The translations under genes were made by a program, and so were the position numbers. From a virus (taxonomy: Duplodnaviria > Heunggongvirae > Uroviricota > Caudoviricetes): a DNA stretch of 35,939 bases. Below are positions 1-31,669 of the stretch, piece after piece. The stretch's first letter is position 1, and each line of letters begins with the position of its first letter. The stretch is from IMG/VR virus record IMGVR_UViG_2627853983_000005, one strand, 5' to 3'. Under the pieces are notes generated by a model. It was not told where the DNA came from. It ran no database searches and saw only the letters and a program-made list of their open reading frames with translations.

Positions 1-2
1 AG

Positions 3-28: not shown

Positions 29-82
29 TGGCCGTTTCTGGCCTGCATGGCATGATTTGCGCTTTTGGACGGGAGATTCAGT

Positions 83-682
83 GTGCTGATTGGCTATGTA
101 AGGGTATCAACAAATGACCAGAATACAGACCTGCAACGAAACGCTCTTGTTTGTGCAGGATGTGAACAAATATTTGAAGATAAATTAAGCGGGACAAAGA
201 CAGACCGACCGGGATTAAAACGCGCTTTAAAGCGCCTTCAAAAAGGTGACACGCTGGTTGTCTGGAAACTGGATCGCCTCGGGCGAAGCATGAAACATCT
301 GATTTCTCTCGTCGGGGAACTACGGGAGCGAGGGATTAATTTTCGCAGTCTGACCGACAGCATAGACACATCTTCTCCAATGGGGCGTTTTTTCTTCCAC
401 GTGATGGGTGCCCTGGCTGAAATGGAACGTGAATTAATTGTTGAACGTACACTGGCCGGGCTGGCGGCAGCGCGCGCAAGGGGGCGCACAGGCGGACGTC
501 GACCGAAGCTGACAAAAGAACAGCATGAGCAAATAGCAAGGCTAATCAAAAACGGGCACGACAGAAAACAACTGGCAATAATTTACGGCATTGGCACATC
601 GACGATTTATCGTTATCACCCTGTAGGCGATATACAGACTGAAGAAACAACCGGGCAGACTCAGGAAAATGAAAACCGCTAA
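83..682 (+). CDS. Serine DNA invertase, Gin/Pin/Cin/Hin family
   Basis: Translation from GTG at 83 reads MLIGYVRVSTNDQNTDLQRNAL..., with resolvase catalytic Ser motif and C-terminal HTH; closest to recalled e14 Pin. ORF track extends to a TTG at 65. Confidence 0.9.
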   Translation: MLIGYVRVSTNDQNTDLQRNALVCAGCEQIFEDKLSGTKTDRPGLKRALKRLQKGDTLVVWKLDRLGRSMKHLISLVGELRERGINFRSLTDSIDTSSPMGRFFFHVMGALAEMERELIVERTLAGLAAARARGRTGGRRPKLTKEQHEQIARLIKNGHDRKQLAIIYGIGTSTIYRYHPVGDIQTEETTGQTQENENR

Positions 683-703: not shown

Positions 704-710
704 TGTTAAA

Positions 711-1205: not shown

Positions 1206-1211
1206 GACTCC

Positions 1212-4055: not shown

Positions 4056-4274
4056 GCCAGCTAACCACTTCGCCGGGCGTCATCATGAAGATTTCGGCGG
4101 GCGACCAGTTGAAAATGGCGGCAATATCCGCCACCAGATCTTCGATGTGCTCAAAGCACACCAGGGTGATTACGCTGCCGTCTCCTGCACGCTCTTCGCG
4201 CCAGAGTCTGGCTCGCTCATAAAATTTACAGCCACAGCGCACAACTGAATAAAATCGCGTGACGACATTTTTTT
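4006..4274 (-). CDS. E' extension reached by programmed -1 frameshift (gpE+E' product)
   Basis: A AAA AAA run at 4268-4274 (minus strand) near E codon 91; the -1 frame is open from there to the stop at 4006. Confidence 0.5.
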
Positions 4275-4544
4275 AATCATCACTTCATCCAGTCGTGGCG
4301 AGGTCACGCGAGGCAACAGCGTGAACATGGTATCCGCTTTCAGATTCAGCACATCAGACAGCGACAGACCACGCAGGGATCCCGCCTGCTCAATAGCCCC
4401 GGTGATCTCCACATATGTGATTTTTTCGGCACCACGCTCAATTGGCCGGGAAAGTTTTACACCACGTTCGACAGCCATATCCTCACCTGACGTCACATCA
4501 TCCGCTACGGTGTTATTCCGGGTTTCAGTATCGATATCTTTCAT
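4170..4544 (-). CDS. E: Tail assembly chaperone gpE
   Basis: ORF starting MKDIDTETRNN between tail tube and tape measure genes; contains A7 slippery run near codon 91. Confidence 0.7.
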   Translation of the reverse strand: MKDIDTETRNNTVADDVTSGEDMAVERGVKLSRPIERGAEKITYVEITGAIEQAGSLRGLSLSDVLNLKADTMFTLLPRVTSPRLDEVMIKKMSSRDFIQLCAVAVNFMSEPDSGAKSVQETAA

Positions 4545-4599
4545 CAGTTGTCTCCTTTTCAGTCAGAGGCGACGCACTGCGCCGCCTGCATATTACTTA

Positions 4600-5112
4600 T
4601 CAGCCAAGCCCAAGCGCGGAACGAATGCGGTCAGGCACAATGTCCTTGCCGTCCTTCCGGTAGATGTGGTTCAACAGGTCGATTTCCCACAGCGGGCGAT
4701 CGTTAACGCTCAGCTTGTAGTAGGTGTTTTTGACAGCGTAAGTGTGTGATGTGGCTTCGCCCTGTTTGGCCTCCCCCATATCAATTTCCGTCACACGCCC
4801 GCGCATCTCGATTTCATACAGATCGCTTTCTGCATCGGTGTAATATTCACCCGCAAAACGCAGCAGCGTGCCGTCAATCGTGCCGCCATACTTAAGGAAC
4901 AGTGCACGAACAGCTCCCCCCATGACAAAGCTCGCATCAAGCGCGGAGTCGTCCAGACCGAGATCAATACTTACTGCTCCCATCATGCCACCACCACGAT
5001 AGCTGTCGGTTTTGCGCGTCAGTTTGGGCGGCGTGACGGATGTCACTTTACCCACTTCGTTTTCACCATCCACAAACAACGTAAAAAAGCGAAGATGTTT
5101 TGGTACAGCCAT
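4600..5112 (-). CDS. FII: Tail tube protein FII
   Basis: 170 aa, immediately downstream of sheath gene; size and position as P2 FII. Confidence 0.85.
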   Translation of the reverse strand: MAVPKHLRFFTLFVDGENEVGKVTSVTPPKLTRKTDSYRGGGMMGAVSIDLGLDDSALDASFVMGGAVRALFLKYGGTIDGTLLRFAGEYYTDAESDLYEIEMRGRVTEIDMGEAKQGEATSHTYAVKNTYYKLSVNDRPLWEIDLLNHIYRKDGKDIVPDRIRSALGLG

Positions 5113-6296
5113 CAGGCACCTCCCAGCACCGCAAATGCGGGACCAAAGAATTCATCAGTAAACGTCTGGTAAAGCTCCATGTCTTCCAGCGGGGGAACGG
5201 GCGTATATTTGTAGCGAATACGCACACGCCCCTGACGTAAATCCGTGGTGCCGTTATCCACCACGTCATACCAGCACTCCGCGCCAATCAGTTTCCCGGC
5301 AGTAACCAGCGAATCCAATTTTGCCCTGATGGCACTGATAACATCCTTCACGTTCGCAGGCGTCAGTGGACTGTCGATGGTTTCAAACTGCGCTTCCGCA
5401 ATTGAATCAGCCAGCACCTGTGCGGTTCGGGTATACACCTCAAAGATGTAGGCGTTCGTTTCCGGTGTGCGGTTGCCCCAGAAGCGGAACCCGTTACGAC
5501 GAATAATGGTCGTGATTTCTTTGTTGTTGAGGCTGTTGGCATCACTGTCTTCGGCCTGTAACGACCAGAACACATGCCTCGACATCCCCAGCACATTTTT
5601 AACCGGAACGTTGGACAGCGATTTGTGCCAGCCCTGCTCATGGTCAATGTACGCACGAAGGCCGCACGCATAAGCAGGCGCGGGGAACGTTTCGTTTTTG
5701 CCACTTTTCGGGTTGTAGGCGATGAAGTCAGGCCATAAGAGCATCACCTCACGTTCGTTGAATTTCTGGCGGTAGGTAATCGCCTCAGCCATCGTGTTAC
5801 AACCATGACATGTGGCATACACAAACGCGCGCAGTTTACCCGCAATCACGCACAGGGATTTTGTCACCGCCTCCGTGTCCAGCTCCGGCGCGGCCAGAAT
5901 ACGCGGACGGTATCCGATGCTTTCATCCTGCTCTGCAACAAGCAGCGCATACATCCCCGTATAGCTGCCGTCAGATTCAGAACCACCGATAACCAGTTGA
6001 TCCTGCGTCCTACCGCCTTCTTCTTTGTGTTCAGCCACGCGAACGACGATCACTTTTGTGCTCACCTGGTCTGCGATAGCCTTAAGCGCACGATAAAGCG
6101 TCCCCGTAGTCCCGCATTTTCCCAGCACGTCATTGACGCGGGTCAGCAGTGTGGGCTTGTTCAGCGGGAACAGCTCCGCATCCGCATCATCCGCCGTTGC
6201 CACGATACCGATAACGCTGGAATCAACATCATTAATCGCTGTTACCAGGTCGGTACTTTCCGTGACACGGGCACCATGAAAACGAGTTTCACTCAT
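5112..6296 (-). CDS. FI: Contractile tail sheath protein FI
   Basis: 394 aa with conserved sheath motifs (KLRAF, AYRQ, EQGWHK, LIRRNGFRFWGNRT, TPVPPLE) recalled from P2 FI. Confidence 0.9.
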   Translation of the reverse strand: MSETRFHGARVTESTDLVTAINDVDSSVIGIVATADDADAELFPLNKPTLLTRVNDVLGKCGTTGTLYRALKAIADQVSTKVIVVRVAEHKEEGGRTQDQLVIGGSESDGSYTGMYALLVAEQDESIGYRPRILAAPELDTEAVTKSLCVIAGKLRAFVYATCHGCNTMAEAITYRQKFNEREVMLLWPDFIAYNPKSGKNETFPAPAYACGLRAYIDHEQGWHKSLSNVPVKNVLGMSRHVFWSLQAEDSDANSLNNKEITTIIRRNGFRFWGNRTPETNAYIFEVYTRTAQVLADSIAEAQFETIDSPLTPANVKDVISAIRAKLDSLVTAGKLIGAECWYDVVDNGTTDLRQGRVRIRYKYTPVPPLEDMELYQTFTDEFFGPAFAVLGGA

Positions 6297-6453
6297 AGCT
6301 TCAGCCCCTTGTATCCGTTAAATGATTCGGCAACAATCATCACCCACCACGCGCGTAATCTCACCCCTGCGCCGTTCTCCCGCCACGGCGACAACAAAAA
6401 GCAGTAACCCCCTCCGCACGCACATGCGACCATGCCGCACAGGGAGGGAGCAG

Positions 6454-7563
6454 ATGACCGACACCACCATGCAATTGCTCAGTCAGGGCACAGACCCCGT
6501 GAAAATGCCGGATTTTGATATTCTCGCGGAGGGTAAAACGCTGTCAGGCGTGGCAGAGCGCCTGATGAGCCTGTCACTGACCGACAACCGGGGATTTGAG
6601 GCGGACCAGCTCACCATCACGCTGGATGATGCGGATGGTCAGTTGCAGCTACCGCCACGGGGCGCGCGCCTGACGGTTCTCATTGGCTGGAAAGGAGAAC
6701 CGCTGACAGAAAAAGGCACTTACATTGTTGATGAAATCGCTCACGAAGGACCGCCGGACAGGCTGACTGTTTCAGCCAGAAGCGCAGATTTTCGGGATGA
6801 ATTTAACGTTAAACGTGAGGTGTCCTGGCATGATGTGACCGTTGAGCGTGTGGTATCCGCCATCGCTCATCGGTATGGTCTGAAACCGCAAATCAGCGAA
6901 ATGCTGATGGATATCGAAATCGACCACGCCGACCAGACCGAAGAAAGCGACATGTCCTTCCTTACGCGCATGGCGGAAATGCTGGGCGCAATCACCACGG
7001 TAAAAAGCGGTAATCTGTTATTCATCATGCCCGGCGGTGGCGTGAACGCACAGGGCCAGCCGTTGCCATCGTTTGCCATCACACGCAGCAGCGGCGATCG
7101 CCATCAGTTCCGCATTGCTGACCGCGAAGCGTATACGGGGGTACGCGCTTACTGGCTTGATCTTAATTACGGGAAAAAGAAAAAAGTCAGCGTGAAACGC
7201 CGTAAACCGCCAAAACCCAAAAAGGAGAAAAGCAGCAGCCGCGAAGGTGATTATATGGAAGGCGCGGAAGGCAATGTGTTTGTGTTACGCAAGACTTATC
7301 AGAACGAGCAGGCAGCAAGACGCGCAGCGGCGGCAAAGTGGCAGCAACTACAACGCGGAGCCGCATCATTCTCCATCACGCTGGCGCGTGGACGTGCAGA
7401 ACTCTACCCCGAAATGCATGGCACGGTAACAGGATTTAAAAGCGAGATTGATAATCAGGACTGGATCATTGCAAAAGCCGAGCACACCATTGATAACAGC
7501 GGTTTTACCACGCAGCTTGAGCTTGAGGCAAAAATCCCGGAATGGATAGCGGAAACAGAGTGA
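6454..7563 (+). CDS. D: Tail/baseplate hub protein gpD (gp27/VgrG-like)
   Basis: ATG at 6454 with GGAGGGAG RBS; 369 aa; immediately upstream of ogr as in P2. ORF track start 6322 lacks an RBS. Confidence 0.85.
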   Translation: MTDTTMQLLSQGTDPVKMPDFDILAEGKTLSGVAERLMSLSLTDNRGFEADQLTITLDDADGQLQLPPRGARLTVLIGWKGEPLTEKGTYIVDEIAHEGPPDRLTVSARSADFRDEFNVKREVSWHDVTVERVVSAIAHRYGLKPQISEMLMDIEIDHADQTEESDMSFLTRMAEMLGAITTVKSGNLLFIMPGGGVNAQGQPLPSFAITRSSGDRHQFRIADREAYTGVRAYWLDLNYGKKKKVSVKRRKPPKPKKEKSSSREGDYMEGAEGNVFVLRKTYQNEQAARRAAAAKWQQLQRGAASFSITLARGRAELYPEMHGTVTGFKSEIDNQDWIIAKAEHTIDNSGFTTQLELEAKIPEWIAETE

Positions 7564-7603
7564 GCAACTTAGAATAGGCAGCACCACGTTAAGGGAGGTC
7601 GCT

Positions 7604-7864
7604 ATGTTCCGTTGTCCGCTTTGTGGCGCATCTGCCCGTATCCGCACCAGTCGTCCGGAAAATGATTCAAACACCGTGCGGCAAAAGTATTACCAGTGTA
7701 ACAATCTGGAATGCGGCGTATGCTTCTCAACACTGGAAGCTTTCCATAAATTCACATCAAAACACGCCTCCGGCGTTCACTCTTCAGAAGGTATCCCGTG
7801 GCATGATCTGCCAGCTTCACACAGGGGAAACAATCAGATGAGTTTGCCTTTATCTCAGAATTAA
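7604..7864 (+). CDS. ogr: Late gene transcriptional activator, Ogr/Delta zinc-finger family
   Basis: MFRCPLCGASARIRTS...YYQCNNLECGVCF: C-x2-C ... C-x4-C zinc finger; position after D as in P2. Confidence 0.85.
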   Translation: MFRCPLCGASARIRTSRPENDSNTVRQKYYQCNNLECGVCFSTLEAFHKFTSKHASGVHSSEGIPWHDLPASHRGNNQMSLPLSQN

Positions 7865-7952
7865 CAGGCAGAATTGCCGGAGTAACAAAAAAGCGATAGA
7901 TTACGTGCGGGTGCCTTTCGGCTGATGGTCGGAGGGAATACCCGAAGGCCAG

Positions 7953-8138
7953 ATGTGGAAAGGCCCCGAGTCAACTTTAACGTTAACCCGAGGCCCTAAC
8001 CATCTACCCTCAGCAAGTGATAGGTTAGCGCCTCCCCGAAAAAGGAGCAAGCGCTATGTCGCAAAAATCGCTTACGGCCATCACATTCTGCGTGACGGCA
8101 ATCCTCATCATCTGGATGCTGCACGGTTCGCTGTGTGA
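7953..8138 (+). CDS. mok-like overlapping reading frame of hok locus (tentative)
   Basis: 61-codon ORF starting upstream of and overlapping hok in another frame, as mok does in hok/sok loci. Confidence 0.3.
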   Translation: MWKGPESTLTLTRGPNHLPSASDRLAPPRKRSKRYVAKIAYGHHILRDGNPHHLDAARFAV

Positions 8139-8196
8139 AATACGGATGAGTTTCTGGGGAGCGGAGTTTGCGGCGTTCTTACAGTGTAAGCAGTAA
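8056..8196 (+). CDS. hok: Hok/Gef-family type I toxin (small membrane peptide)
   Basis: 46 aa MSQKSLTAITFCVTAILIIWMLHGSLCEIRMSFWGAEFAAFLQCKQ: N-terminal TM helix, SLCEIR and AAF motifs of Hok/Gef; AAGGAG RBS 8 nt upstream; below ORF-track size cut-off. Confidence 0.75.
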   Translation: MSQKSLTAITFCVTAILIIWMLHGSLCEIRMSFWGAEFAAFLQCKQ

Positions 8197-8289
8197 GGAA
8201 ACCGCGACGGGGAAGGCAACTTCCCCGTCAATCGGTTGCCAGGGTAAAGGTCGAAAAGGCACCCTATTTCCAGTTGACGTGAACAACAA

Positions 8290-8322
8290 GCCCGCAGCGT
8301 AAAAACTGCGGGTTTTCTTTTT
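8290..8322 (+). terminator. Rho-independent terminator ending hok/ogr transcript
   Basis: Stem GCCCGCAG/CTGCGGGT with 8-nt loop followed by TTTCTTTTT. Confidence 0.6.
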
Positions 8323-8356
8323 GGTTCCCTCACTCATGAGGACACCAAAAAACAAA

Positions 8357-8385
8357 GCCCACAGCATAGAAGCTGTGGGCTTTTT
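8357..8385. terminator. Second hairpin terminator, bidirectional
   Basis: 9-bp stem GCCCACAGC/GCTGTGGGC followed by TTTTT; A-run on the other side. Confidence 0.55.
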
Positions 8386-8395
8386 GCATTCAAAG

Positions 8396-8590
8396 ATGGA
8401 CGTTATATGGACACTTAAAAATAAAATCCATTTATTTTCAAATGATTAAACCTCTACTTAAAGCGCCCGCAGGCGCTTTAACGTTTCTTGCCCCTCCTGA
8501 TGATTTACTTATTTTTCAACGAATAAGCCAAAACAGGGGGAACAAATTAACACAAATTATAACTAATCGATGGACAGTTTATGGACACTT
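8396..8590. other. Putative attP region with Int arm-type direct repeats
   Basis: ATGGACGTTATATGGACACTT (8396-8416) and ATGGACAGTTTATGGACACTT (8570-8590) flank an AT-rich stretch and a GCGCC hairpin (8460-8479); lies at int 3' end where P2 attP sits. Confidence 0.4.
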
Positions 8591-9570
8591 TCAGCCAGCG
8601 GATTAAAGTTGATCGCGTCCAGTAAAAAGTCCGGCGAAAAATGAGCGTACGTCATTGTTTGCTGAATCGTTGCGTGCCCCAGGATTCGTTGCAACGTAAC
8701 AATATTTCCGCCATTCATCATAAAGTGTGTGGCAAATGTATGACGCATGACATGCGTAGCCTGCCCCTTCGGCAAATCCGGTTTCACCTCCTGAAGAATC
8801 TCCCGGAACTTCAGATAATCAACCTGATACAATAACCCCGTTCGACGGGTTTTAATCAGAGGCACGACCGAATCCGCCACAGGAACCGAACGGGATTTTC
8901 CGTTTTTGGTGTTAAAGAACGTCACCCGGTTGCCAACGATATGCTCTCCACGTAGTTCCGATGCTTCACTCCATCGGGCACCAGTAGAAAGACACAGAAT
9001 GGCAACACGACGCACATCACCCTCCAGTCGCTCAAGAAGCCGTTCAATCTCATCATCAGAAAGAAAGGCCATCTCTGTGTTCTGAACTTTCAGTTTTCGT
9101 ATACCGCGTACAGGGTTCGCGTTGTGAAAGACCTCAGCTTCAATCAGCACCGTGAACATGGTAGACAGTACGCATAAGTCACGATTAATACTGGACGGCA
9201 TTAATCCGGCCTGTAATTTCTCTGACCGATATTCAAGCATAAATTTTCGCGTCATCTGACTGGCGCGAGGATCTCCCATTTCACGAACAACCTTCCCTAG
9301 CCTAACCCTGTAGCTATCCCCGTAAGCCTGATTACGCCCATCAAGCATCCACCACGCATCAAGCAGCTCTGATAATCGCCGCTGATCAGCTGGCTTAGCC
9401 TGCCATGGCTTGTCATGAAAGTTCTGTAACACATACTTCTCAAACTCCTGAGCCTTTGATTTCAGGGCAAAGATTTTTCGAATCCGCTTTCCTTCCGCCC
9501 CCTGCGGTCTGACATCGACCTGATAACGTCCGTCTTTGAGTTGCTTAATCGACATGATTAGCCCCTCCAA
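8563..9570 (-). CDS. int: Tyrosine integrase, P2-type
   Basis: 335 aa with C-terminal catalytic region (...ATHVMRHTFATHF...LGHATIQQTMTYAH); adjacent to C repressor as in P2. Confidence 0.9.
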   Translation of the reverse strand: MEGLIMSIKQLKDGRYQVDVRPQGAEGKRIRKIFALKSKAQEFEKYVLQNFHDKPWQAKPADQRRLSELLDAWWMLDGRNQAYGDSYRVRLGKVVREMGDPRASQMTRKFMLEYRSEKLQAGLMPSSINRDLCVLSTMFTVLIEAEVFHNANPVRGIRKLKVQNTEMAFLSDDEIERLLERLEGDVRRVAILCLSTGARWSEASELRGEHIVGNRVTFFNTKNGKSRSVPVADSVVPLIKTRRTGLLYQVDYLKFREILQEVKPDLPKGQATHVMRHTFATHFMMNGGNIVTLQRILGHATIQQTMTYAHFSPDFLLDAINFNPLAESVHKLSID

Positions 9571-9624
9571 CGGATAAATTAACTAAACACTCCTTGCGAT
9601 ATGTAATTCGCTCAATGTGTAGAG

Positions 9625-9966
9625 TCAGCCAACATTGCGGCCTGATCGGGGTGATTTTTGGGTAATACCGATTGAAACCTGATCGCCCTCCGACTGAATA
9701 GATCCATCAAGAGAGAGAGCCGGAGCAATCTGCCCGGCGACAGGTAGCGTCTTATCTTTTATTAGCCACAGCATGTATTTTTCAAAGCGATCGACTTGCA
9801 GAACCGCCTCAACGATTTTTGCTCTAGCGTTCTTTTGCCCCGATTCGTAATTCCTTATGGTTGCCAAAGACAACCCAGTAATATCCGCAAACTGCTTTTG
9901 TGTTAACCCTTCCGCCTTACGTATCTGACGTAACTTTTTTGCGTAGTCTATTGACAAGATAACCAT
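9625..9966 (-). CDS. C: Immunity repressor C (HTH)
   Basis: HTH ...LTQKQFADITGLSLATIRNYESGQ and QIAPAL motif resembling recalled P2 C; start taken at ATG 9966 (ORF track uses TTG at 10020). Confidence 0.8.
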   Translation of the reverse strand: MVILSIDYAKKLRQIRKAEGLTQKQFADITGLSLATIRNYESGQKNARAKIVEAVLQVDRFEKYMLWLIKDKTLPVAGQIAPALSLDGSIQSEGDQVSIGITQKSPRSGRNVG

Positions 9967-9987
9967 TTGAGTATTAACCTCTCGCAC

Positions 9988-10011
9988 AAAGATAACCTTT
10001 TGGTTATCTTT
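9988..10011. promoter_or_regulatory. Operator-like palindrome in C/cox promoter region
   Basis: AAAGATAACC-TTTT-GGTTATCTTT perfect 10-bp inverted repeat 22 bp upstream of C start. Confidence 0.5.
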
Positions 10012-10070
10012 ACAAGCCAAAACAAACCATCACAAGGCGCGACAAGCGCACCAACGCAAGAGGATAACAA

Positions 10071-10592
10071 ATGCGGGACTTCATTGCCGATAAAGAGTTA
10101 TCTGACCACCAACCACTTCAGGAAAGTGACGCACTCAGCGGATCCATTGATGCCGCCAACGACGACGAGCACGAAGAAAACAAGAAAAAGCGTTCCTACA
10201 AAAAAGGAGCGACTTTGCGGCTGGATGGTCCGATCGCCGGGCTTTGCTCTCTGGAAAAAGGCGCGGCATATATTGGGCTAACAAAATCTGCACTGCGCGT
10301 AGCCATTCATCGCGGTCAAATGCCGGGACACAAGACGCGCACAAACCCGGAAGATGAAAACTCAGACGGAGTATGGTGGTTTAACGCCAAAGAGTGGGAC
10401 AAGTTGGCTGATGAGCTACCAGAGCACGAGCCCCCAGAATGGCACAACTGGAAAAGTTACTGGACGTATGACCGCCAGAAAAGGAAGTTCTCTCCAGCTA
10501 ATAAAGAAGACTGCCAGACCATTAACGGTAAGCGAGTTTATACAGGCAGAAGCTCAAAACTGGACCAACTCAGAAACAACAGAGGCAACTAA
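10071..10592 (+). CDS. Cox/Apl-like early regulator, putative excisionase
   Basis: First gene of rightward early operon, facing C; central HTH-like segment AAYIGLTKSALRVAIHRGQMPG; acidic N-terminus. Alternative TTG start at 10215 with AAGGAG RBS. Confidence 0.5.
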   Translation: MRDFIADKELSDHQPLQESDALSGSIDAANDDEHEENKKKRSYKKGATLRLDGPIAGLCSLEKGAAYIGLTKSALRVAIHRGQMPGHKTRTNPEDENSDGVWWFNAKEWDKLADELPEHEPPEWHNWKSYWTYDRQKRKFSPANKEDCQTINGKRVYTGRSSKLDQLRNNRGN

Positions 10593-10596
10593 TCGT

Positions 10597-11019
10597 ATGA
10601 AAACAAACACGTCAGATTTCACAATAACTATTTCAAAAAATGACCAAGCATTAATTGATAACCTGAAATACCTTGCGGAAAAACATAATAACGGACGAAT
10701 TGCAATTAATTTACGACACATCACAGGAGTAACAATTGTAACCAGTTACTGGCATCTATATCTAATCGCTAAATCAGTACTTGAAAACAAAGATTCTGTT
10801 GTCAATGGAAGAGATATAGATACTCTTCCTGCACAAATCAAACCGATAGCCTATCAATTGCGTAATCGTTTTAAAAATGAAGGTGGGATTATATTTGACT
10901 TTCCCGCAGCTGTAGCCGTGAGCTTCTCTCGGGGGGATATACTTCACTCATTTCGTTTTGCTCTATCAGGTGACGAGACATTATGGCAGCTAGAAGATGC
11001 CGGGAGCAGCCCGGCATAA
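10597..11019 (+). CDS. Hypothetical protein in AT-rich island
   Basis: ATG 10597 with AGAGG RBS; 141 aa; sharp drop in GC relative to flanks. Confidence 0.55.
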   Translation: MKTNTSDFTITISKNDQALIDNLKYLAEKHNNGRIAINLRHITGVTIVTSYWHLYLIAKSVLENKDSVVNGRDIDTLPAQIKPIAYQLRNRFKNEGGIIFDFPAAVAVSFSRGDILHSFRFALSGDETLWQLEDAGSSPA

Positions 11020-11025
11020 ATCAAA

Positions 11026-11217
11026 TTAAAAATCAACCAGTTGTGTGACAGGTGGGTATTTACGCTGAATTTTGTCAGTTACTAACGCCAGTAATATATG
11101 AATCTCTGTGTTTAATGCGTCTTTATCACCCGTCGTTTTTACCCTGGGAGGGTTAATGTTATCCAGAGCAGCACTAAGTTCACTCAACAAATTAACAACT
11201 TTTTTATCTTCTGACAT
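11026..11217 (-). CDS. Hypothetical small protein (63 aa), antisense to early operon
   Basis: AAGAGG RBS 6 nt upstream of ATG; convergent with previous gene; AT-rich. Confidence 0.5.
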   Translation of the reverse strand: MSEDKKVVNLLSELSAALDNINPPRVKTTGDKDALNTEIHILLALVTDKIQRKYPPVTQLVDF

Positions 11218-11354
11218 GAAAACCTCTTAACAATTTAATTAAACATAAGCCAGGACCTGAACCGGCCAGTCCAAGTCCTAGACACACAAAAAAAATACCA
11301 CAAATCAATACAAGGTGACACGAGTACACCTTACCGAAGGTACAGAGTTTTAAT

Positions 11355-18508: not shown

Positions 18509-18823
18509 ATGACGACACCAACCAGACGGATAAGTTTCTATCTGAAGCCCGCCGCCGTCAAGAGTGAACAGGAGGCGTGCAATTACCTCGATAGCCTGCC
18601 AGCCTCCGAACGCAGCCGCGCGCAACGCGCGGCCTTTCTGGCTGGGCTAGCGCTCATAAAGCGCAACCCAGCATTTGCCTACTGGATGGCCGAATGGCCA
18701 GAGGACAACCTCCCCTTCAATACCGTTAGCATCAAGGAAACATACCAGGATAATCAGCCTAGCGGAGTTGAATGCAATTTTTATAAAATAAAAAAGAATA
18801 TTCAGACCTTATTCCCAGAATAA
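18509..18823 (+). CDS. parR: ParR/StbB-like centromere-binding adaptor
   Basis: AAGGAG RBS; RRISFYLKP...LDSLPASERSRAQRAAFLAGLALIK resembles recalled R1 ParR ribbon-helix-helix N-terminus; directly downstream of parM. Confidence 0.8.
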   Translation: MTTPTRRISFYLKPAAVKSEQEACNYLDSLPASERSRAQRAAFLAGLALIKRNPAFAYWMAEWPEDNLPFNTVSIKETYQDNQPSGVECNFYKIKKNIQTLFPE

Positions 18824-18906
18824 TCTGATAATTGTATGTGAACTAATAAAATACAGACCAACACATCATTCTGGCACCCTTGCTAACAGGGTGCCAATGT
18901 TTCAAA

Positions 18907-19749
18907 TCATGATGAAATTGCCGAAGTTTTTTTATCGTGCTGAAGTACCGCAAATGCCATTAAAACCTCAAGAGAATAGCGGCGATAATACTTAACAAAA
19001 CCATAATAAAATACTCGGGATGCAGCAATACAAAACAAGAGAAGAAAACAAAAAGGTAACAGTCTGATATTTATATCTATTAAAAAGGATAGAAGGAGCA
19101 GGAACATAAGCAACCAGACTGAAGCGAGAAAAACAAATGTAATGTTTCTACAAAAACCATACAAAGCAACATAGTTTTGCATTTTCACCTGATGATTTTT
19201 AGAATGTTCATACACATAATGATAAGCAAGGCGAAAAAGATCGCCCCTCAAGCCCTTACGTCGATATAGCGTAGATACAGAAAAAACATTTATATAACCA
19301 TCTCGTATTTGCGGCCAAAAGACTTTAATAAGTATAGAATGCAGTGTGGTTTTATGATGTTCTGCTTTATCAAAAGCTGATACAGGAAATAAAAAAACTC
19401 CACGAATAAAATTAACTATACTGAACTTAGTATTATGTCGTTTTATTTTCAGGGAGCTTCTTTTAGAAAACAGATAAATTGAAGGATACCCAAGTTTACT
19501 GTTCATGTATTTTTCAATTAAACAGGATGATAGAATAGATATGAAGTGACCTGAAATATATGATAGAACGATTAATACCACATATATAAATACACTTATT
19601 ATTTCTTTATATTTCAGGATATGGTTAAGAATACCTTCTATATAAACAGGGTTAATTTCAATAGAAAACAAAAAAAGGATAAACAGGAATAACCCACCTG
19701 GAATTAGATAGCCCAAAAAGTCATAAAATGAAAACGGATTCTGTGTCAC
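18907..19749 (-). CDS. Hypothetical integral membrane protein (2 N-terminal and 2 C-terminal TM helices), second gene of AT-rich cassette
   Basis: 280 aa; GTG start with CAGGGGGAAG RBS; very low GC; hydrophobic segments at both ends with a soluble middle. Confidence 0.6.
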   Translation of the reverse strand: MTQNPFSFYDFLGYLIPGGLFLFILFLFSIEINPVYIEGILNHILKYKEIISVFIYVVLIVLSYISGHFISILSSCLIEKYMNSKLGYPSIYLFSKRSSLKIKRHNTKFSIVNFIRGVFLFPVSAFDKAEHHKTTLHSILIKVFWPQIRDGYINVFSVSTLYRRKGLRGDLFRLAYHYVYEHSKNHQVKMQNYVALYGFCRNITFVFLASVWLLMFLLLLSFLIDINIRLLPFCFLLLFCIAASRVFYYGFVKYYRRYSLEVLMAFAVLQHDKKTSAISS

Positions 19750-19788
19750 ACTTCCCCCTGTGTTACTTGTAAATTAAAGGGTAAAACA

Positions 19789-20286
19789 TTATTTGTTTTT
19801 CCGTAAAGGATTAGCTTTCCATCTTCTTACTAACCATTCGAATTCTTGATATGTAGTATCCGAATTAATGCTTTCTCTGATTGCTTTAATTAATGGCTCG
19901 GCAATATCATATGTCTCTACAACTGTTGTGTAAGATGTTCTTTTTATCATTTTTTCATCATAAATACCTTCACGAATACTTACAGCAACTCGCTCGTAAA
20001 AATTTAAAATATATTGAAATTTTCGACGCTCGGCCATTTCTTCATCTGTTATTATGCAACCATCACAAGGAAAAACATAAGAACGAAATGATTTGCCTGA
20101 ACGATGCACTTGTTTCAGGGTATGCAATGACTCTATATATTGCATATCTTGCCGACTCTCAAAAAGAAAGTTGGCCGTTTGAGTTTTTTTTGCGGTACGC
20201 ACATTGTAGATAATGGTTCCAATGGCAACCAAAACGCCAAGCAGAACAATAGCATTGCTGATGATTTGTAGTGTTATTGGGTTCAT
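19789..20286 (-). CDS. Hypothetical single-pass membrane protein, first gene of AT-rich cassette
   Basis: 165 aa; N-terminal TM helix MNPITLQIISNAIVLLGVLVAIGTIIY then soluble domain; weak RBS. Confidence 0.6.
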   Translation of the reverse strand: MNPITLQIISNAIVLLGVLVAIGTIIYNVRTAKKTQTANFLFESRQDMQYIESLHTLKQVHRSGKSFRSYVFPCDGCIITDEEMAERRKFQYILNFYERVAVSIREGIYDEKMIKRTSYTTVVETYDIAEPLIKAIRESINSDTTYQEFEWLVRRWKANPLRKNK

Positions 20287-20299
20287 CCTATTTCATCCA

Positions 20300-20326
20300 T
20301 AAAAAAGGCGGGGAGCAAATCCCCGC
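20300..20326 (-). terminator. Rho-independent terminator/attenuator just upstream of AT-rich cassette
   Basis: On minus strand: stem GGCGGGGA/TCCCCGCC, 5-nt loop, then T6 run; ends 14 nt before cassette start codon. Confidence 0.55.
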
Positions 20327-21009
20327 CTCATTAGAGGTCAACGTAGCTTAGAAACCATCAAATTCATCATACATTTTTTTCATATCAACCCCCTCATAGA
20401 AATCATAACCACGTTTTGTGGTTTTTGTGACGTATAAACTACATCAAAGGCAAGCCACGGTCAAATATATAGGCATGCTTACCTGCACAAAAGTGCACAA
20501 ATTTGCACAATTTTTTTGAACGACTTTTTACCCTTCCGGCCCGCATGGCGGCTGGATCCGTCAAGGATCCGTGCGTGCACAAAAAAACGCGCTTTTTCTG
20601 CGCGCAGGTGACGGGGGAACAGCCCGCGTTTCAGGGGGTAAATAGCATTCCCTGAACGATGTCGCAGAGACACAACAGAATGGCCATATTTCTCACGCTG
20701 AGCATGAAAAAGGCGTGAGGGCTTTTGATTTGATGGGGTGAAAGGTAAGGCCGTCAAAATCGCACTGAGGCAGCGAGAACATGCAGTCAACGCGGTGGAA
20801 TTGCGTAAGAGTCTGACCGTCGATGGTGGCGATAAACTGGAAGGCGTCGTGAAATTATCTGATTGATACAGGAGCTGGAGAGCCGGGGCATAAATTTTTT
20901 ATGCCCCGGCGAAGCAGCAGACAAGCGAAGCGCGTCAGCGATACGGCACCTTGCCGACCATACTTCATAAGTGCAAAATACGAGCAAAGAAATCAATGGA
21001 GGCTGTCTT

Positions 21010-25360: not shown

Positions 25361-26413
25361 ATGAATCTGGTGATGTCAGATATTACCCGCAACAAGCTGG
25401 GTTGCTATATGGCGCAGCAGGCGTCGCTTAACAATATCCCGGTATCTGCACTGGTATCGCGATTTACCGTGGAACCCGCGGTGCAGCAGCGTTTTGAAAA
25501 CGCCTCAAAGGAAAGTACCGAATTTACGAAAAGAATTAACGTGATCGGCGTGACCGACCAGAAAGGCGAAAAAATCCTCCTGGACACCACCGGGCCAATT
25601 GCGCGCACGAATAGCAGTTATGACGGCATCAAACGCCGTAACCCGAATAACGTGATCGATATGAAGTCTCGTCAGTACCAGTGCGAACAGGTGAACTACG
25701 ATACCTTTATTTCGTACCCACAGCTTGATACCTGGGCGGCCCACAGCGATTTTCAGTCCCGTATCAGTACACAGATCGCCCGGCAGGTAGCGCTTGATCG
25801 CATCATGATTGGCTTTAACGGCACATCCCACGCCTACGAGTCTGATTTTCACACCAACAAGCTGCTTCAGGACGTTAACGTGGGCTGGCTGGAGCACATC
25901 AGAACCGATGCCAGCGAGCGCGTAATGAATGACGTGACGCTGACCTCCCGCAACATGGACAACACTGTGGCGCACGCGGGTAAGTATGCGAATGCCGATG
26001 CTCTGGTACAGGATGCGCGCTCATCCCTGCTGGATGAATGGCACAAGGAAGCTGACGACCTCGCGGTGATTATGGGGCGCAACCTGTTTAACTCGCTGCG
26101 TCTGCCCGTGCTGAACAGCATCAGCGGCCAGAATCCCAATGCGGAATTACTTGCCGGGCAGCTCATCCTGTCATCGCGCACCATTGGCGGGCTGGGCGTG
26201 TTCCTTGCGCCGTTCTTCCCGGATGCAACGATGCTTATCACCTCGTTCAACAACCTGTCGATTTACTGGCAGAAAGGTTCAATGCGTCGCCTGATGAAAG
26301 ACGAGCCGGAATACAACCGCATCGCCACCTACCAGTCCATCAATGACGCTTATGTCGTTGAAGACTATGGCAAGTGCGCGATGGTCACTGGCCTGAAGTT
26401 CGCCGACAGCTAA
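25361..26413 (+). CDS. N: Major capsid protein gpN
   Basis: 350 aa following O; AGGAG RBS. Confidence 0.9.
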   Translation: MNLVMSDITRNKLGCYMAQQASLNNIPVSALVSRFTVEPAVQQRFENASKESTEFTKRINVIGVTDQKGEKILLDTTGPIARTNSSYDGIKRRNPNNVIDMKSRQYQCEQVNYDTFISYPQLDTWAAHSDFQSRISTQIARQVALDRIMIGFNGTSHAYESDFHTNKLLQDVNVGWLEHIRTDASERVMNDVTLTSRNMDNTVAHAGKYANADALVQDARSSLLDEWHKEADDLAVIMGRNLFNSLRLPVLNSISGQNPNAELLAGQLILSSRTIGGLGVFLAPFFPDATMLITSFNNLSIYWQKGSMRRLMKDEPEYNRIATYQSINDAYVVEDYGKCAMVTGLKFADS

Positions 26414-28057: not shown

Positions 28058-28381
28058 GTGAGCACCATTCAAACAGGGATCACAGAGCAGGTTATTGCGT
28101 GGCTCTTTGACCACCTGCCAACGGTGTATGCAGTAGGCGCGGCGGTCAGCATTTCCGCGCTGATGAGTCTTTATGACGGACGAACACTGGTTCAGACCGT
28201 AACGGGATCGCTGGCGTGCGGCGTTCTTGCCATGGCCGTGGCCGGGTCGCTGCGCTTCTTCGGGATCCCTGAGGATGCAGTGACGTTTTTTGGTGCCTCA
28301 ATCGGTTTTATGGGCGCAGAGAAAGCACGCGACAAGGTTATTGCAATATTTGATCGCAGGGTGAAGGAGAGGAACGAATGA
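28058..28381 (+). CDS. Holin (putative, 3 TM helices)
   Basis: GTG 28058 after GGGGGG; hydrophobic segments; immediately upstream of endolysin. Confidence 0.6.
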   Translation: MSTIQTGITEQVIAWLFDHLPTVYAVGAAVSISALMSLYDGRTLVQTVTGSLACGVLAMAVAGSLRFFGIPEDAVTFFGASIGFMGAEKARDKVIAIFDRRVKERNE

Positions 28382-28770
28382 GCAACACATTTAAATTCAG
28401 CAGCCGGAGCGAAAAGAATTTGCAGGGTGTAAATCCTGATCTGGTGAAAGTGACCCGACGGGCGCTGGAAATCTCGGAAGTGGATTTTGGTATCACCGAA
28501 GGATTGCGCAGTCGTTATCGTCAGAAGCAGCTCGTGACCACAGGCAAGAGCCAGACCATGAACAGTCGCCATCTCACAGGGCATGCCGTGGATGTTGTGG
28601 CTTATGTCGGCAACCAGGTGTCATGGGAATGGCCGCTGTACGAAAAAATCGCAGCAGCATTCAGACAGGCCAGCCAGGAACTGAATATTCCGGTGGAATG
28701 GGGCGGCGACTGGAAGACCCTGAAAGACGGACCGCATTTTCAGTTACCACACGGAGCCTATCCGGCATGA
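28378..28770 (+). CDS. Endolysin, L-alanyl-D-glutamate peptidase (M15 family)
   Basis: Motifs SRHLTGHAVDVV and DGPHFQL typical of M15/VanY-like phage endopeptidases; 130 aa. Confidence 0.75.
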   Translation: MSNTFKFSSRSEKNLQGVNPDLVKVTRRALEISEVDFGITEGLRSRYRQKQLVTTGKSQTMNSRHLTGHAVDVVAYVGNQVSWEWPLYEKIAAAFRQASQELNIPVEWGGDWKTLKDGPHFQLPHGAYPA

Positions 28771-29162
28771 AGCTCTGGCCCACGCTTGGCGTCGCTTTCC
28801 TTCTGATTACATCCATGCGTCTGTCGTGGTCGCTGGGCCGGGAGAACGCCAGAAACGAAGCGCAGGCCAGCACCCTGAAAAGTACCGTCGACACACTGAA
28901 TATCATCAGCGCCGGGGTACAGGATATGCAGCAGGTGCTGGCTCAGCTCCGCGCGGAAAATCAGCAACGCAATCAGGACGGAGAGGTAAGACGTGAACAG
29001 CTACGCAACGATATTGCAAAAGATGAATGCGCCCACGCTTTGCCTGACGCTCGTTTTACTGACAGGTTGCGCAGGCACGCAGAACGCGCCAGGGCCAGCG
29101 CCGTCAGTCCGGCTTATACCGCAGACGCTGACCATGCCGGTAACGCCTCCCCCCTTCCCTGA
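28767..29162 (+). CDS. i-spanin (Rz/LysB-like)
   Basis: ATG overlaps endolysin stop; N-terminal TM then coiled-coil; next ORF embedded out of frame. Confidence 0.6.
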   Translation: MKLWPTLGVAFLLITSMRLSWSLGRENARNEAQASTLKSTVDTLNIISAGVQDMQQVLAQLRAENQQRNQDGEVRREQLRNDIAKDECAHALPDARFTDRLRRHAERARASAVSPAYTADADHAGNASPLP

Positions 29163-29304
29163 CCCACCCACATGGGGAAACCTCGGAATATGGGGCGACC
29201 GCCTTCTGGATGCACTGGAAACCTGTAACGCGGATAAACGGGCCATTGCTGAACTGGATAAGAGAATAGCCGAACTGACACACCAGACGGGAGTAACACA
29301 ATGA
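29023..29304 (+). CDS. o-spanin lipoprotein (Rz1/LysC-like)
   Basis: Lipobox LLTGC after signal peptide; Pro-rich; embedded in +1 frame of i-spanin. Confidence 0.6.
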   Translation: MNAPTLCLTLVLLTGCAGTQNAPGPAPSVRLIPQTLTMPVTPPPFPDPPTWGNLGIWGDRLLDALETCNADKRAIAELDKRIAELTHQTGVTQ

Positions 29305-31178
29305 CCAGTAAGAACTTTGCACTGATTACAGCCATGACACAGGCTGAACTGACTCAAAAGGTGAATGAACATCTTGCGAAAGGGTGGCATCTTCAGGGGG
29401 AGACGCGGGTTGCCTACGAACCCGGCACCCCGTGGTATCTAATGCAGGCAATGGTGGCCGATGGCACTACAGACATCTCACCTGATTCCCCCCAGCACGG
29501 CAGCGTGCCGGAGTGGTATTACGTGGTGGTACTTGCTGGTCAATCCAATGCCATGTCATATGGTGAGGGAATGCCGCTGCCGGATTCTTACGATGCGCCC
29601 CACCCACGCATTAAGCAACTGGCCCGTCGCAACACAGTGACTCCCGGTGGTAAAGCATGCGCATTTAACGACATCATTCCGGCAGACCACTGCCTGCATG
29701 ATGTTCAGGATATGAGCGCACTGAATCACCCGAATGCAGACCTGAGCAAAGGGCAGTATGGCTGTGTCGGACAGGGCTTGCATATTGCCAAACGCCTGTT
29801 GCCTTACATTCCACAGAATGCCGGGATTTTACTGGTTCCATGCTGTCGTGGTGGTTCGGCATTCACCCAGGGCGCGGAGGGGACATTCAGCGAGTCCACA
29901 GGAGCCAGTCAGGATTCGGCTCGCTGGGGTGTGGGTAAACCTTTATATCAGGACCTGATTTTGCGCACGAAGGCCGCATTGCAGAAAAACCCAAAAAACA
30001 TGCTGCTGGCCGTATGCTGGATGCAGGGCGAATTTGACATGAGCGCCGCTACGTACTCACAGCAACCTCCGCTGTTTACGGCCATGCTGAAACAGTTTCG
30101 TGCGGACATTACCGAGTTTAACACGCAGTGTCATGGAGGCAGAGCGGCAAGTGTGCCATGGATTTGTGGTGACACGACGTATTACTGGAAAAACACCTAC
30201 GGCACGCAGTACGACACCATTTACGGGGCGTACAAAAACAGGGAGAGCGACAACGTTTTCTTTGTGCCGTTCCTGACCGATGGTAGTGGCAACAATACCT
30301 CCACCAACGCACCAACGGAAGATCCGGATGCTGCAAGTGAGGGATATTACGGTTCGGCATCCCGAACGAACAAAAACTGGGTATCATCAAATCGCCAGAC
30401 GCATTTCAGCTCATGGGCGCGTCGTGGCATTATTCCCGATCGTATGGCAACCGCTATTCTGAACGTAGCCGGTCGCACCTTAGCCTTCATCAGTGGTAAG
30501 GCACCGGAAATCAAACCCTCGCCCGGCGGCGACACGCCATCGGGGCCGTCTGAAGATGCATCCGTACGCACAATCTCCCTGTTGCCGACAGCCGGAGATG
30601 CTGCTGCGCAGGGCTGGAGCATTAAGAATGGCGGAATTCAGTTGTCAGAGGGTGTATTTAAGATCACCAAGCAGAGCAATAAAGCCTGGTCCCTGACGCG
30701 CCCGGTGGATGACGCAGTCTCCCTGCTGACACGGGGTGGCAGACTGAGCTGTAAGTTTCGACTGTCAGGCGCACTGACCAACAATCAGTTCGGTCTGGGA
30801 ATTTATCTGTATACCGATGTAGCGTTACCTGACGTCGTGGCGATGACCGGGACTGGTAACCCGTTCCTGATGTCGTTCTTCACCCAGACCACAGACGGCA
30901 AACTGAATCTGATGCATCACAAGAAAGCAGGAAACACAAAGTTGGGCGAGTTCGGGAATTACAGTAACGACTGGCAGACGCTGGAGCTGGTGTTCACCGC
31001 CGGCAGTGCCACGGTTACTCCGAAACTGAATGGAGTGGCTGGCCCGGCATTCCAGGTCATAAAAGACAGTCTGACACTGGGGCTGAATGCGCTGACGTTA
31101 ACTGATATCACTAAAAATGCCGCGTACGGCGTCGATATCGGCAGCCTGGTGCTGGAAATCAATAATCCCGCAGCATAA
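29301..31178 (+). CDS. NanS-like sialate 9-O-acetylesterase moron (N-terminal DUF1737-like, SASA/SGNH esterase core, C-terminal domain of unknown function)
   Basis: VVVLAGQSNAMSYGEG, HPRIKQLAR, CCRGGSAF, WMQGEFD motifs as recalled for E. coli NanS and prophage NanS-p; 625 aa; inserted between spanins and R. Confidence 0.7.
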   Translation: MTSKNFALITAMTQAELTQKVNEHLAKGWHLQGETRVAYEPGTPWYLMQAMVADGTTDISPDSPQHGSVPEWYYVVVLAGQSNAMSYGEGMPLPDSYDAPHPRIKQLARRNTVTPGGKACAFNDIIPADHCLHDVQDMSALNHPNADLSKGQYGCVGQGLHIAKRLLPYIPQNAGILLVPCCRGGSAFTQGAEGTFSESTGASQDSARWGVGKPLYQDLILRTKAALQKNPKNMLLAVCWMQGEFDMSAATYSQQPPLFTAMLKQFRADITEFNTQCHGGRAASVPWICGDTTYYWKNTYGTQYDTIYGAYKNRESDNVFFVPFLTDGSGNNTSTNAPTEDPDAASEGYYGSASRTNKNWVSSNRQTHFSSWARRGIIPDRMATAILNVAGRTLAFISGKAPEIKPSPGGDTPSGPSEDASVRTISLLPTAGDAAAQGWSIKNGGIQLSEGVFKITKQSNKAWSLTRPVDDAVSLLTRGGRLSCKFRLSGALTNNQFGLGIYLYTDVALPDVVAMTGTGNPFLMSFFTQTTDGKLNLMHHKKAGNTKLGEFGNYSNDWQTLELVFTAGSATVTPKLNGVAGPAFQVIKDSLTLGLNALTLTDITKNAAYGVDIGSLVLEINNPAA

Positions 31179-31201
31179 GGAAGAGCAGGAGAGCAAAACA
31201 G

Positions 31202-31669
31202 ATGCTTAAGACAAACAGTCTGCGAGAGTCCATGCTTCATGGGTGTCGGTGGTGCCAGGCTAATCCCGAGAAATTCACCATTTTCGTGGAGAGCGGCAAC
31301 ATTGAAACGACCGGAGAAGCGCCCTCGTTTGTTTACCGCTATCAGATGGTGATGTTTGTCATGGATTACGCCGGAGAGCTGGACGACCTCACGCTGCCGC
31401 TGCTGGCGTGGTTATCCGAAAATCAGCCACAGTTGTTGCTCAATCCGGAGCGTAATCAGGACATCAAATTTTCTGCCGTTATCAATGACGATGACAGCGC
31501 CGATCTCCTGTTTACGCTCCCCCTGCGGGAACGCGTTCGCATCACGCGCAACAGTCAGGGCACACCGCAGGCAGAACACCTGCCGGAGCCAAAACCCCGT
31601 CTGCCTTCTTCCGAAGGCGACTGGTCGCATGTATTCCAGGATGTGACGTGGGGTGAAAGCGATGGATAA
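31202..31669 (+). CDS. R: Tail completion protein gpR
   Basis: 155 aa, size and position as P2 R. Confidence 0.8.
   Translation: MLKTNSLRESMLHGCRWCQANPEKFTIFVESGNIETTGEAPSFVYRYQMVMFVMDYAGELDDLTLPLLAWLSENQPQLLLNPERNQDIKFSAVINDDDSADLLFTLPLRERVRITRNSQGTPQAEHLPEPKPRLPSSEGDWSHVFQDVTWGESDG

Follow-up and report, generated by a model that had tools for sequence, protein, structure and literature searches.

The nanS-p locus

The subject of this report is a homologue of nanS-p, a member of the NanS-like sialate O-acetylesterase family, found among the late genes of a virus sequence of 35,939 nucleotides (nt) (IMG/VR record IMGVR_UViG_2627853983_000005), which as a whole stretch is called the window below. 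The window is 100% identical to the prophage adjoining serS in Escherichia coli O25b:H4 sequence type 131 (ST131) strain EC958, and its gene order, including an oppositely oriented tail-sheath operon, is that of phage P88 (Xuanwuvirus, Peduoviridae). The gene and the parts of its product are as follows.

29301..31178, plus strand: nanS-p homologue of 625 amino acids, known from the list of open reading frames (ORFs), Pfam domains, PDB matches and a full-length phrog_143 match
29301..29459, plus strand: N-terminal DUF1737 module, residues 1-53, P2-type variant; PF08410, 28.8 bits; conserved loop EPG[TV]PWYLMQAM
29460..29504, plus strand: linker 1, residues 54-68, DGTTDISPDSPQHGS; the match to lambdoid nanS-p DNA begins just past it, at gene nt 207
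29505..30464, plus strand: SASA/SGNH catalytic domain, residues 69-388, homologous to E. coli NanS (3pt5, E 1.7e-125)
29538..29552, plus strand: block I GQSNA, residues 80-84; Ser82 (codon 29544-29546) is the predicted nucleophile, equal to NanS Ser19
30402..30404, plus strand: codon of His368, the predicted catalytic base, in block V THFSS, equivalent to the histidine of NanS SHFS
30465..30587, plus strand: linker 2, residues 389-429, rich in Pro, Ser and Gly, between the two PDB-matched domains
30588..31175, plus strand: C-terminal lectin-like jelly-roll domain, DUF6645; PF20350, 70.2 bits; 6yp6, E 1.7e-29

The gene runs from an ATG to a TAA stop at 31176-31178 and is listed exactly as it had been read in an earlier note on this DNA, which was made from the letters alone. 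Its ATG (29301-29303) overlaps by 4 nt the TGA (29302-29304) of the o-spanin gene lysC, in the sequence caATGAcc, and the overlap of start and o-spanin stop reported in that note is thus borne out by the ATGA at 29301-29304. The sequence around the start is acgggagtaacacaATGAccagt, with a Shine-Dalgarno-like GGGAG 8-12 nt upstream of the start, and 23 nt containing AGGAG separate the stop from the ATG of gene R at 31202. The G+C content (GC) is 0.54 and that of third codon positions 0.59-0.60, both similar to those of the neighbour genes.

Domains and predicted activity

The protein had been called NanS-like, and SASA and DUF1737 had been named as the domains by which the call could be checked. 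Both were found above their Pfam cut-offs: DUF1737 at residues 4-53 (28.8 bits against 24) and SASA (PF03629) at residues 75-271 (44.3 bits against 24.8), and DUF6645 at residues 476-586 likewise scored above its curated cut-off. Residues 69-388 align end to end with E. coli NanS (YjhS, 3pt5) at 423 bits, and residues 430-622 match the structure 6yp6 of the NanS-p C-terminal domain. In a structural survey the SGNH blocks of 3PT5 are given as GQSNA, RGGSAF, MQGEFD and ...SHFS (PMC10792757); compared with this listing all four are intact in the 625-residue protein, as GQSNA (80-84, the catalytic-serine block already recognised in the earlier note), RGGSAF (183-188), MQGEFD (241-246) and H368 followed by FSS. 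With the SASA score, the 3pt5 match and the four blocks kept, the family assignment stands. A further claim, that of an extra C-terminal domain of about 230 residues, stands only as to the presence of the domain, as it is the regular third domain of NanS-p proteins (DUF6645/6yp6) and its reading as a novel addition was ruled out. This domain has been described as a lectin-like jelly roll for which carbohydrate binding was proposed (Franke et al. 2020, as cited in PMC10462455 and PMC8065619). For the four aromatic residues of the C-terminal site in phage phi24B, mapping from the printed alignment gave inconsistent offsets and no claim is made about them.

No signal peptide or membrane anchor was seen in the whole 625-residue protein, which has no hydrophobic stretch (the highest 19-residue hydropathy is 1.27). 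Among annotation resources, PHROGs gives a full-length match to phrog_143, annotated as 'unknown function', NCBIfam has no model matching the protein, and RefSeq names WP_000202148.1 a 'DUF6645 domain-containing protein', which could be renamed sialate O-acetylesterase NanS-p. By every sequence-level criterion the product is an intact three-domain member of the NanS-p family. E. coli NanS, an SGNH esterase, works best on 9-O-acetylated N-acetylneuraminic acid (Neu5Ac) (PMC9487903), and because the catalytic blocks are conserved the same chemistry may be expected of the window protein, a complete and probably active sialate 9-O-acetylesterase.

Late gene cluster and proposed function

The neighbours that matter for the interpretation are given below.

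25361..26413, plus strand: P2-family major capsid protein gpN, a putative docking partner of the N-terminal module (N-module)
28378..28770, plus strand: M15 peptidase endolysin (PHROG and RefSeq context)
28767..29162, plus strand: Rz-like i-spanin, DUF2570 (PHROG and RefSeq context)
29044..29304, plus strand: lysC, gene of the Rz1-like o-spanin, nested in and overlapping that of the i-spanin; stop codon in overlap with the nanS-p start
31202..31669, plus strand: gene R homologue, tail completion or tail terminator protein, directly 3' of nanS-p

According to PHROG assignments the upstream neighbours encode the terminase small subunit (gpM), the head-tail adaptor (gpL), gpX, the M15 endolysin and the Rz-like and Rz1-like spanins, and the downstream ones the tail terminator/completion proteins R and S and the baseplate proteins V and W. 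Gaps between successive genes do not exceed 92 nt from gpM (26459) to J (34122), and nanS-p, flanked by lysC and R, belongs to a late cluster whose genes all run in one direction without a break; these neighbours and the P88 gene order fit the placement between the spanins and R of a P2-like phage that had been given before. Consensus scans returned promoter-like sites (2 found, 2.2 expected) and terminator-like sites (5 found, 4.0 expected) at chance level, the sole promoter-like match upstream of nanS-p ends on its start codon, and no plus-strand terminator-like site flanking the gene was met with in the same scan. The term moron, used in the earlier note, is correct for an extra gene between two genes that are adjacent in relatives, but not for a gene with its own promoter and terminator, none being detectable by consensus scan; in that classical sense nanS-p does not qualify.

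It is considered probable (roughly 0.85) that the gene specifies an active three-domain NanS-p esterase which belongs to the late operon of a P88-like phage and is released at lysis. Upon induction nanS-p would be transcribed and translated with the late, Ogr-type operon, and the cytoplasmic enzyme would leave the cell only at lysis, as is suggested by the lack of an export signal together with the position in the late cluster. It would then take 9-O-acetyl groups off free 5-N-acetyl-9-O-acetylneuraminic acid (Neu5,9Ac2) and off mucin sialoglycans, with the C-terminal domain presumably directing it to the glycan, and sialidases, as well as the nan catabolic pathway of sibling lysogens that survive, would gain access to the de-acetylated sialic acid. 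The N-module may be a separate, backbone-linked unit which, by analogy to gp84 of phi24B, could tether part of the enzyme to the capsid. Activity of this kind is known from the NanS-p proteins of EDL933 and O104:H4, which remove O-acetyl groups from mucin glycans and enable cells to grow on Neu5,9Ac2, and enterohaemorrhagic E. coli (EHEC) strains need nanS-p genes for such growth (PMC8065619); nanS-p transcription rises under inducing conditions (PMC10462455).

Several observations weigh against this proposal. The P2 late-promoter motif TGT-N12-ACA is not at the places expected: it has three exact matches against 8.6 expected, none at the start of the late operon, which makes it uninformative for the genus, and the operon assignment comes from gene packing and P2 homology. 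Copies of nanS-p with internal deletions, either of about 1 kb or with partial loss of the catalytic domain, are present in the P88-type loci L019 (5223-5876), L024 (6205-6858), L005 and L025, so that the phage can evidently do without the gene. For the Phi4 gene EC958_1546 three paralogues have been noted, including EC958_1029, which is 82.7% identical over the whole protein (Kakkanat et al. 2017, PMC5425062), and from its position and identity the window gene is very probably EC958_1029. Overexpression of EC958_1029, unlike that of EC958_1546, gave no motility phenotype, a result silent on esterase activity (PMC5425062). Moreover, ST131 is already provided with NanS-like genes in its chromosome and with a nanS-p of lambdoid type (PMC5425062), so a nutritional benefit of the P2-type copy would be redundant.

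Insertion, frequency and a second lineage

In P88 and six other deposited Xuanwuvirus genomes the flanks match at 96%, nanS-p is absent and lysC is followed directly by R. The difference consists of one segment.

29249..31243, plus strand: inserted segment of 1995 bp, which replaces 93 bp of P88 (blastn and alignments)

It spans the last 18 lysC codons, nanS-p, the 23-nt spacer and the first 14 R codons. The left boundary is sharp and lies inside lysC, and therefore the last 18 o-spanin codons arrived with the insert; the right boundary is gradual and lies in the first ~60 nt of R. The lysC frame runs into the R start in P88 and into the nanS-p start in the window.

The N-terminal 200 nt of nanS-p are present in 376 of 5426 complete E. 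coli genomes, as is a 400-nt probe made of the lysC 3' end and the N-module (joined in 376 of 376), and the whole lysC-nanS-p-R arrangement is present in 373; the empty P88-type junction was found in 689. Many listed carriers are ST131 (EC958, JJ1887, O25b:H4 strains), bovine and other isolates being represented too, and the exact 625-residue protein occurs on at least 999 contigs of a large collection. In the earlier note this cargo was associated with lambdoid and not with P2-like phages; it is not rare in the latter, being present in these about 376 genomes and in a second P2-like lineage.

That lineage appeared among 33 IMG/VR loci with the P2-type N-module, all of whose proteins come from E. 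coli and all of which have P2-like genes upstream (33/33). The backbone is of P88 type in 26 of them, with a capsid protein 99-100% identical to that of the window. The other seven share a second P2-like backbone, with a capsid protein 62% identical to that of the window and 97-98% among themselves, and carry homologues of 642-656 residues at the equal position between lysC and R. For the second backbone megablast against phages found no match, and a search with its capsid protein pointed to P88-like phages as the nearest deposited relatives, with capsid identity of only 62%. The junction ggagtaacacaATGA is common to the window and locus L033 of the second lineage, and the lysC end, the ribosome-binding site, the start codon and the N-module are shared between the two, from which it follows that the gene reached P88-type phages from another P2-like phage and not by independent lambdoid capture. 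Direct insertion from a lambdoid phage was considered and rejected, as junction and N-module are common to another P2-like lineage.

In the second backbone (L031 5218-5520, L033 6972-7344, L035 7971-8373) a GC-rich hairpin, preceded by an A-run and ending in a T-poor tail, comes after nanS-p, and a spacer of ~370-400 nt then leads to R, where the window has a gap of only 23 nt; the spacer of L035 contains a hydrophobic ORF of 54 residues (8036..8200). In the P88-type phage records ON470599, ON470623 and PV468777 the gene is truncated, since gene nt 1251 or 1464 is the point where the record starts or stops; assemblies are probably broken by the multi-copy nanS-p paralogues.

Full-text searches of the literature found no paper placing nanS-p in P2-like phages. 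The family, its chemistry and even the gene (as EC958_1029) are already in the literature or databases, while the P2-like context, the frequency, the second lineage and the module swap appear to be undescribed before.

Exchange of the enzyme body and a possible capsid anchor

Identity to lambdoid nanS-p is confined to one part of the gene. At the DNA level it amounts to 85% to nanS-p of phage 434, H-19B and Shiga toxin (Stx) 1a phages, only from gene nt 207 on, and the protein is 29% identical to NanS-p of phage 434 over residues 1-68 and 86% over residues 69-625. The DUF1737 module itself (residues 1-53) shares 32% with that of phage 434 and 29-34% with lambdoid N-domains; it is a divergent DUF1737 subtype whose loop EPGTPWY is four residues longer than the lambdoid one and whose most conserved stretch is EPG[TV]PWYLMQAM. 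With the N-terminal 72 residues, tblastn against 50,697 phage records retrieved only three identical P88-type records, and a word-indexed protein search near-identical fragments only. An exhaustive phmmer search of 1.84 billion representatives gave only 10 N-module matches at E<=1e-3, none of them a lambdoid NanS-p, and a scan of the GTDB species representatives gave no confirmed match. The P2-type N-module seems to be confined to E. coli prophages absent from representative genomes.

Identity of the N-module is 75-100% within a backbone, 57-66% between the two P2-like backbones and ~30% to lambdoid phages; it can be said that it follows the backbone, which catalytic-domain identity does not. 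Single clusters at 90% identity contain one enzyme body fused to the P2-type or to either of two lambdoid N-modules. Across the 26 P88-type loci the N-module is 86-100% identical (mostly 100%) and the catalytic and C-terminal domains 85-100%, and sliding windows over P88-type loci show 100% for the flanks and for about the first 400 nt of nanS-p, and 71-91% for internal tracts at ~29700-30700. As judged from these profiles the internal tracts are gene-conversion patches, and through gene conversion co-resident nanS-p alleles have replaced the sequence of the enzyme body time and again; the products keep their frame after the tracts (625-627 residues). Locus L006 (7884-10431; also L018) has P88-type head and lysis genes and the P2-type nanS-p 5' end, followed after nanS-p by a lambdoid holin, signal-arrest-release endolysin and Rz and not by R, which indicates recombination between different prophages through nanS-p paralogues.

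Capsid tethering through DUF1737 was not foreseen in the earlier note and is plausible by analogy. In phi24B the NanS-p protein gp84 is found in virions, full length when fresh and clipped later, and its DUF1737 (residues 2-57) is a hexamer in the hexon pore with Tyr42 as anchor (preprint 10.64898/2026.04.10.717836). In the same manner DUF1737 might dock NanS-p hexamers on the gpN hexons of the P2-type capsid, and fresh virions would display esterase and lectin, which would aid binding or movement of the particles in O-acetylated sialomucin; the enzyme might be clipped off later. The gene would then be an accessory structural one and not lysogenic-conversion cargo, an explanation which overlaps with release at lysis and differs from it in beneficiary and site. 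Besides the capsid hexamer of phi24B, it is favoured by the module boundary right after DUF1737 and linker, with 29% identity before and 86% after it, and by the joining of one enzyme body to P2-type or lambdoid N-modules inside single 90% clusters. The P2-type module is, furthermore, never found away from P88-type lysC in complete E. coli genomes (376/376) or, in the 33 IMG/VR loci, from P2-like genes upstream, its identity follows the backbone as that of the catalytic domain does not, and the stretch EPG[TV]PWYLMQAM sits at the loop equivalent to the phi24B anchor loop. The protein Psu of phage P4 binds the centre of gpN hexamers, so the site can take a decoration protein.

Other points speak against virion display. 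The linkage has a neutral explanation, as lambdoid phages contain nothing homologous to lysC and divergence between the N-modules is too great for crossing over, so that any exchange must start downstream of the N-module; the backbone association is expected equally from linkage alone as from docking. Binding in phi24B is limited to flat facet-centre hexons of a T=9 shell, which are absent from a P2-type capsid of presumed T=7. The closest stand-alone DUF1737 relatives (P0016-P0018) lie on short contigs or in early regions with RecT and DnaJ-like genes and not in head modules; their homology is marginal (E ~1e-4), and for that reason their contexts are no strong evidence against a head role either. 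A single-sequence AlphaFold model of the N-module, of low predicted local distance difference test score (pLDDT 58.5) and too weak for comparison or a fold search, has a helix at 14-26, strands at 35-39, 45-53 and 56-61, and W45-Y46 in the loop equivalent to the phi24B anchor loop; the gp84 module consists of one helix and three antiparallel strands, its last loop bearing the aromatic anchor. The SSP processing motif is absent from the 625-residue protein, and the source in support is a preprint. On balance virion display is a tentative explanation, with the odds somewhat against it.

It is less likely than not that DUF1737 is a capsid-type-specific dock with esterase and lectin as an exchangeable payload, by which P88-like virions of ST131 would be active mucus-glycan-editing particles. 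Docking on a P2-type capsid, if true, would give Peduoviridae their first described case of an enzyme decorating the capsid; ST131 virions in the gut or urinary tract would be active, and gene conversion, with lambdoid alleles of the same cell as partners, would keep their payload renewed.

Other explanations

Moron genes are usually expressed from the repressed prophage, and nanS-p could be a conversion gene of this classical kind, expressed from its own promoter in the uninduced lysogen and providing each lysogen with an esterase, kept inside the cell or leaked from it, with which to grow on Neu5,9Ac2. The dependence of EHEC on nanS-p genes for such growth would suit this idea, as would the terminator-like hairpin and the ~400-nt spacer after nanS-p in the second P2-like lineage. 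It is nevertheless improbable: the window has no spacers (a 4-nt overlap upstream, 23 nt downstream), the lone upstream promoter-like match ends on the start codon with counts at chance, the missing signal peptide makes it hard to see how extracellular substrate would be reached without lysis, and in Stx phages nanS-p is switched on by induction along with the late genes (PMC10462455, PMC8065619).

Just as little credence is given to a neutral or decaying passenger, kept by the successful ST131 clone and by homologous recombination without a selected function. Several copies are internally deleted, 689 genomes hold P88-type phages without nanS-p, the abundance is largely clonal (the listed strains are mostly O25b:H4/ST131) and paralogy drives inter-prophage rearrangements such as the L006 hybrid. 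Against this stand the intact ORF with all catalytic blocks and tight translational coupling, the intact homologues of 642-656 residues at the equal site in the second backbone, whose capsid is only 62% identical, and the conversion tracts, which preserve the frame and give products of 625-627 residues.

That the esterase strips O-acetyl groups from O-antigen or capsules (e.g. O-acetylated polysialic acid) for adsorption or superinfection block, in the mode of phage tailspike SGNH esterases, was raised for NanS-p in a review (PMC8065619), has a parallel in the SGNH esterase tail proteins common in prophages, including Klebsiella Peduoviridae (PMC12115436), and resembles the sialylated-receptor modification proposed in the earlier note, for which nothing in support was found, but it is very improbable, with nanS-p outside the tail-fibre module (fibre genes lie beyond 34.6 kb), no tail-attachment domain found, a catalytic domain closely homologous to an enzyme with maximal activity on 9-O-acetyl Neu5Ac, and an enzyme body that circulates among phages with unrelated tails and receptors.

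The carrier prophage

The window is the excised or circular form of an EC958-type P88-like prophage, because both prophage ends are joined in it. At the junction 8480-8562 (with 1-8479 and 8900-35939) the right end (ogr/hok side, 23 nt from serS in EC958) is fused to the left end, which begins with the integrase ORF 8563..9570 on the minus strand; as the right end is joined directly to the left one, attP and an excision-competent phage are implied. The inverted tail-sheath operon was considered as a sign of a rearranged, defective prophage and this was rejected, P88 having the identical order. Between the window end (35939) and start (1), beside the DNA invertase ORF 65..682, 2718 bp of EC958 are absent, namely the tail-fibre C-terminus, two tail-fibre assembly genes and an inverted partial fibre gene (L002 27041-29758). 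The window was thus opened at the invertible tail-fibre segment, probably by an assembly break from inversion heterogeneity. In the tail-fibre region, at 35172-35516, there is a direct repeat of ~214 bp with 86% identity and an offset of ~130 bp, seen as self-overlapping blast matches with P88 and EC958.

Positions 8323-11347 (integrase, C repressor, Cox) and the early segment 12433-12874 have no megablast match to P88, from which it follows that the immunity and integration module differs from that of P88 (the site in EC958 is adjacent to serS). A low-GC island at 18564-20483 (GC 0.31-0.39 against ~0.55), between parM/partition genes and the portal gene, replaces a different P88 segment and holds two minus-strand ORFs, 18907..19749 (280 residues) and 19789..20286 (165 residues, DUF4760 in RefSeq). 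PADLOC gave a weak Csx27-like match only (E 1.2e-5); the position recalls a P2 old/tin-type hotspot and makes the island candidate anti-phage cargo.

Significance

Research on NanS-p has dealt almost exclusively with the Shiga-toxin phages of EHEC, to which the enzyme is an accessory. P2-like prophages of extra-intestinal pathogenic E. coli frequently carry it too, as a late gene, and about 7% of complete E. coli genomes, including ST131 reference strains, carry nanS-p at the lysC junction. Its enzyme body crosses unrelated phage families and the small N-module stays with the backbone; should the module prove to anchor the enzyme to the capsid, as reported for phi24B, virions of several phage families would have the power to de-acetylate sialic acid, and nature would have provided an experiment on the matching of decoration modules to capsids. 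The nanS-p paralogues are also recombination substrates between prophages and break short-read assemblies. On the whole there is little out of the ordinary in the case: the accessory enzyme is well known from phages, and its context, though new, is common; the twist is a backbone-specific N-module with an exchangeable body.

Comparison with known systems

The closest known systems are the NanS-p proteins of lambdoid and Stx phages (933W Z1466/L0105, phi24B vb_24B_21 = gp84, phage 434 CPT_434_71, EC958_1546), which have the same DUF1737-SASA-lectin-like architecture, are likewise devoid of a signal peptide, are encoded in the late region beside lysis genes and are carried by E. coli prophages. 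The window gene differs from them in its carrier, a P2-like myovirus (Xuanwuvirus), in its position after the spanins and before R, where lambdoid nanS-p lies between Q/stx and the holin gene S, in the overlap of its start with the lysC stop and in its N-module, a distinct subtype of 29-34% identity. Within this group phi24B gp84 has the same DUF1737 at the N-terminus, then a flexible linker and the same enzyme. Its capsid is of T=9, whereas that of the window phage, only a putative dock, is built of P2-type gpN and presumably of T=7; the anchor loop also differs and the SSP-type processing motif of gp84 is absent.

E. coli NanS (YjhS) shares with the catalytic domain the SGNH/SASA blocks, including two unusual traits of the family, the QGE motif and the lack of a block V Asp. 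It is a single-domain protein with an N-terminal leader, encoded in the nanCMS operon, whereas the window protein is three-domain, leaderless, phage-encoded and presumably under late control. The SGNH O-acetylesterases of tail spikes and tail fibres (Klebsiella and Acinetobacter prophages, PMC12115436) are also carbohydrate esterases of SGNH fold made late by temperate phages; they are receptor-binding, have tail-attachment domains, lie in the tail-fibre module and act on bacterial polysaccharides, and none of these features is found in nanS-p.

P2-like phages have variable accessory loci, such as hotspots of the old/tin and Z/fun type. The nanS-p site differs from these in lying inside the late morphogenesis/lysis operon, without a detectable promoter of its own, and it resembles them in the presence or absence of the gene among close relatives at a fixed site between conserved genes.

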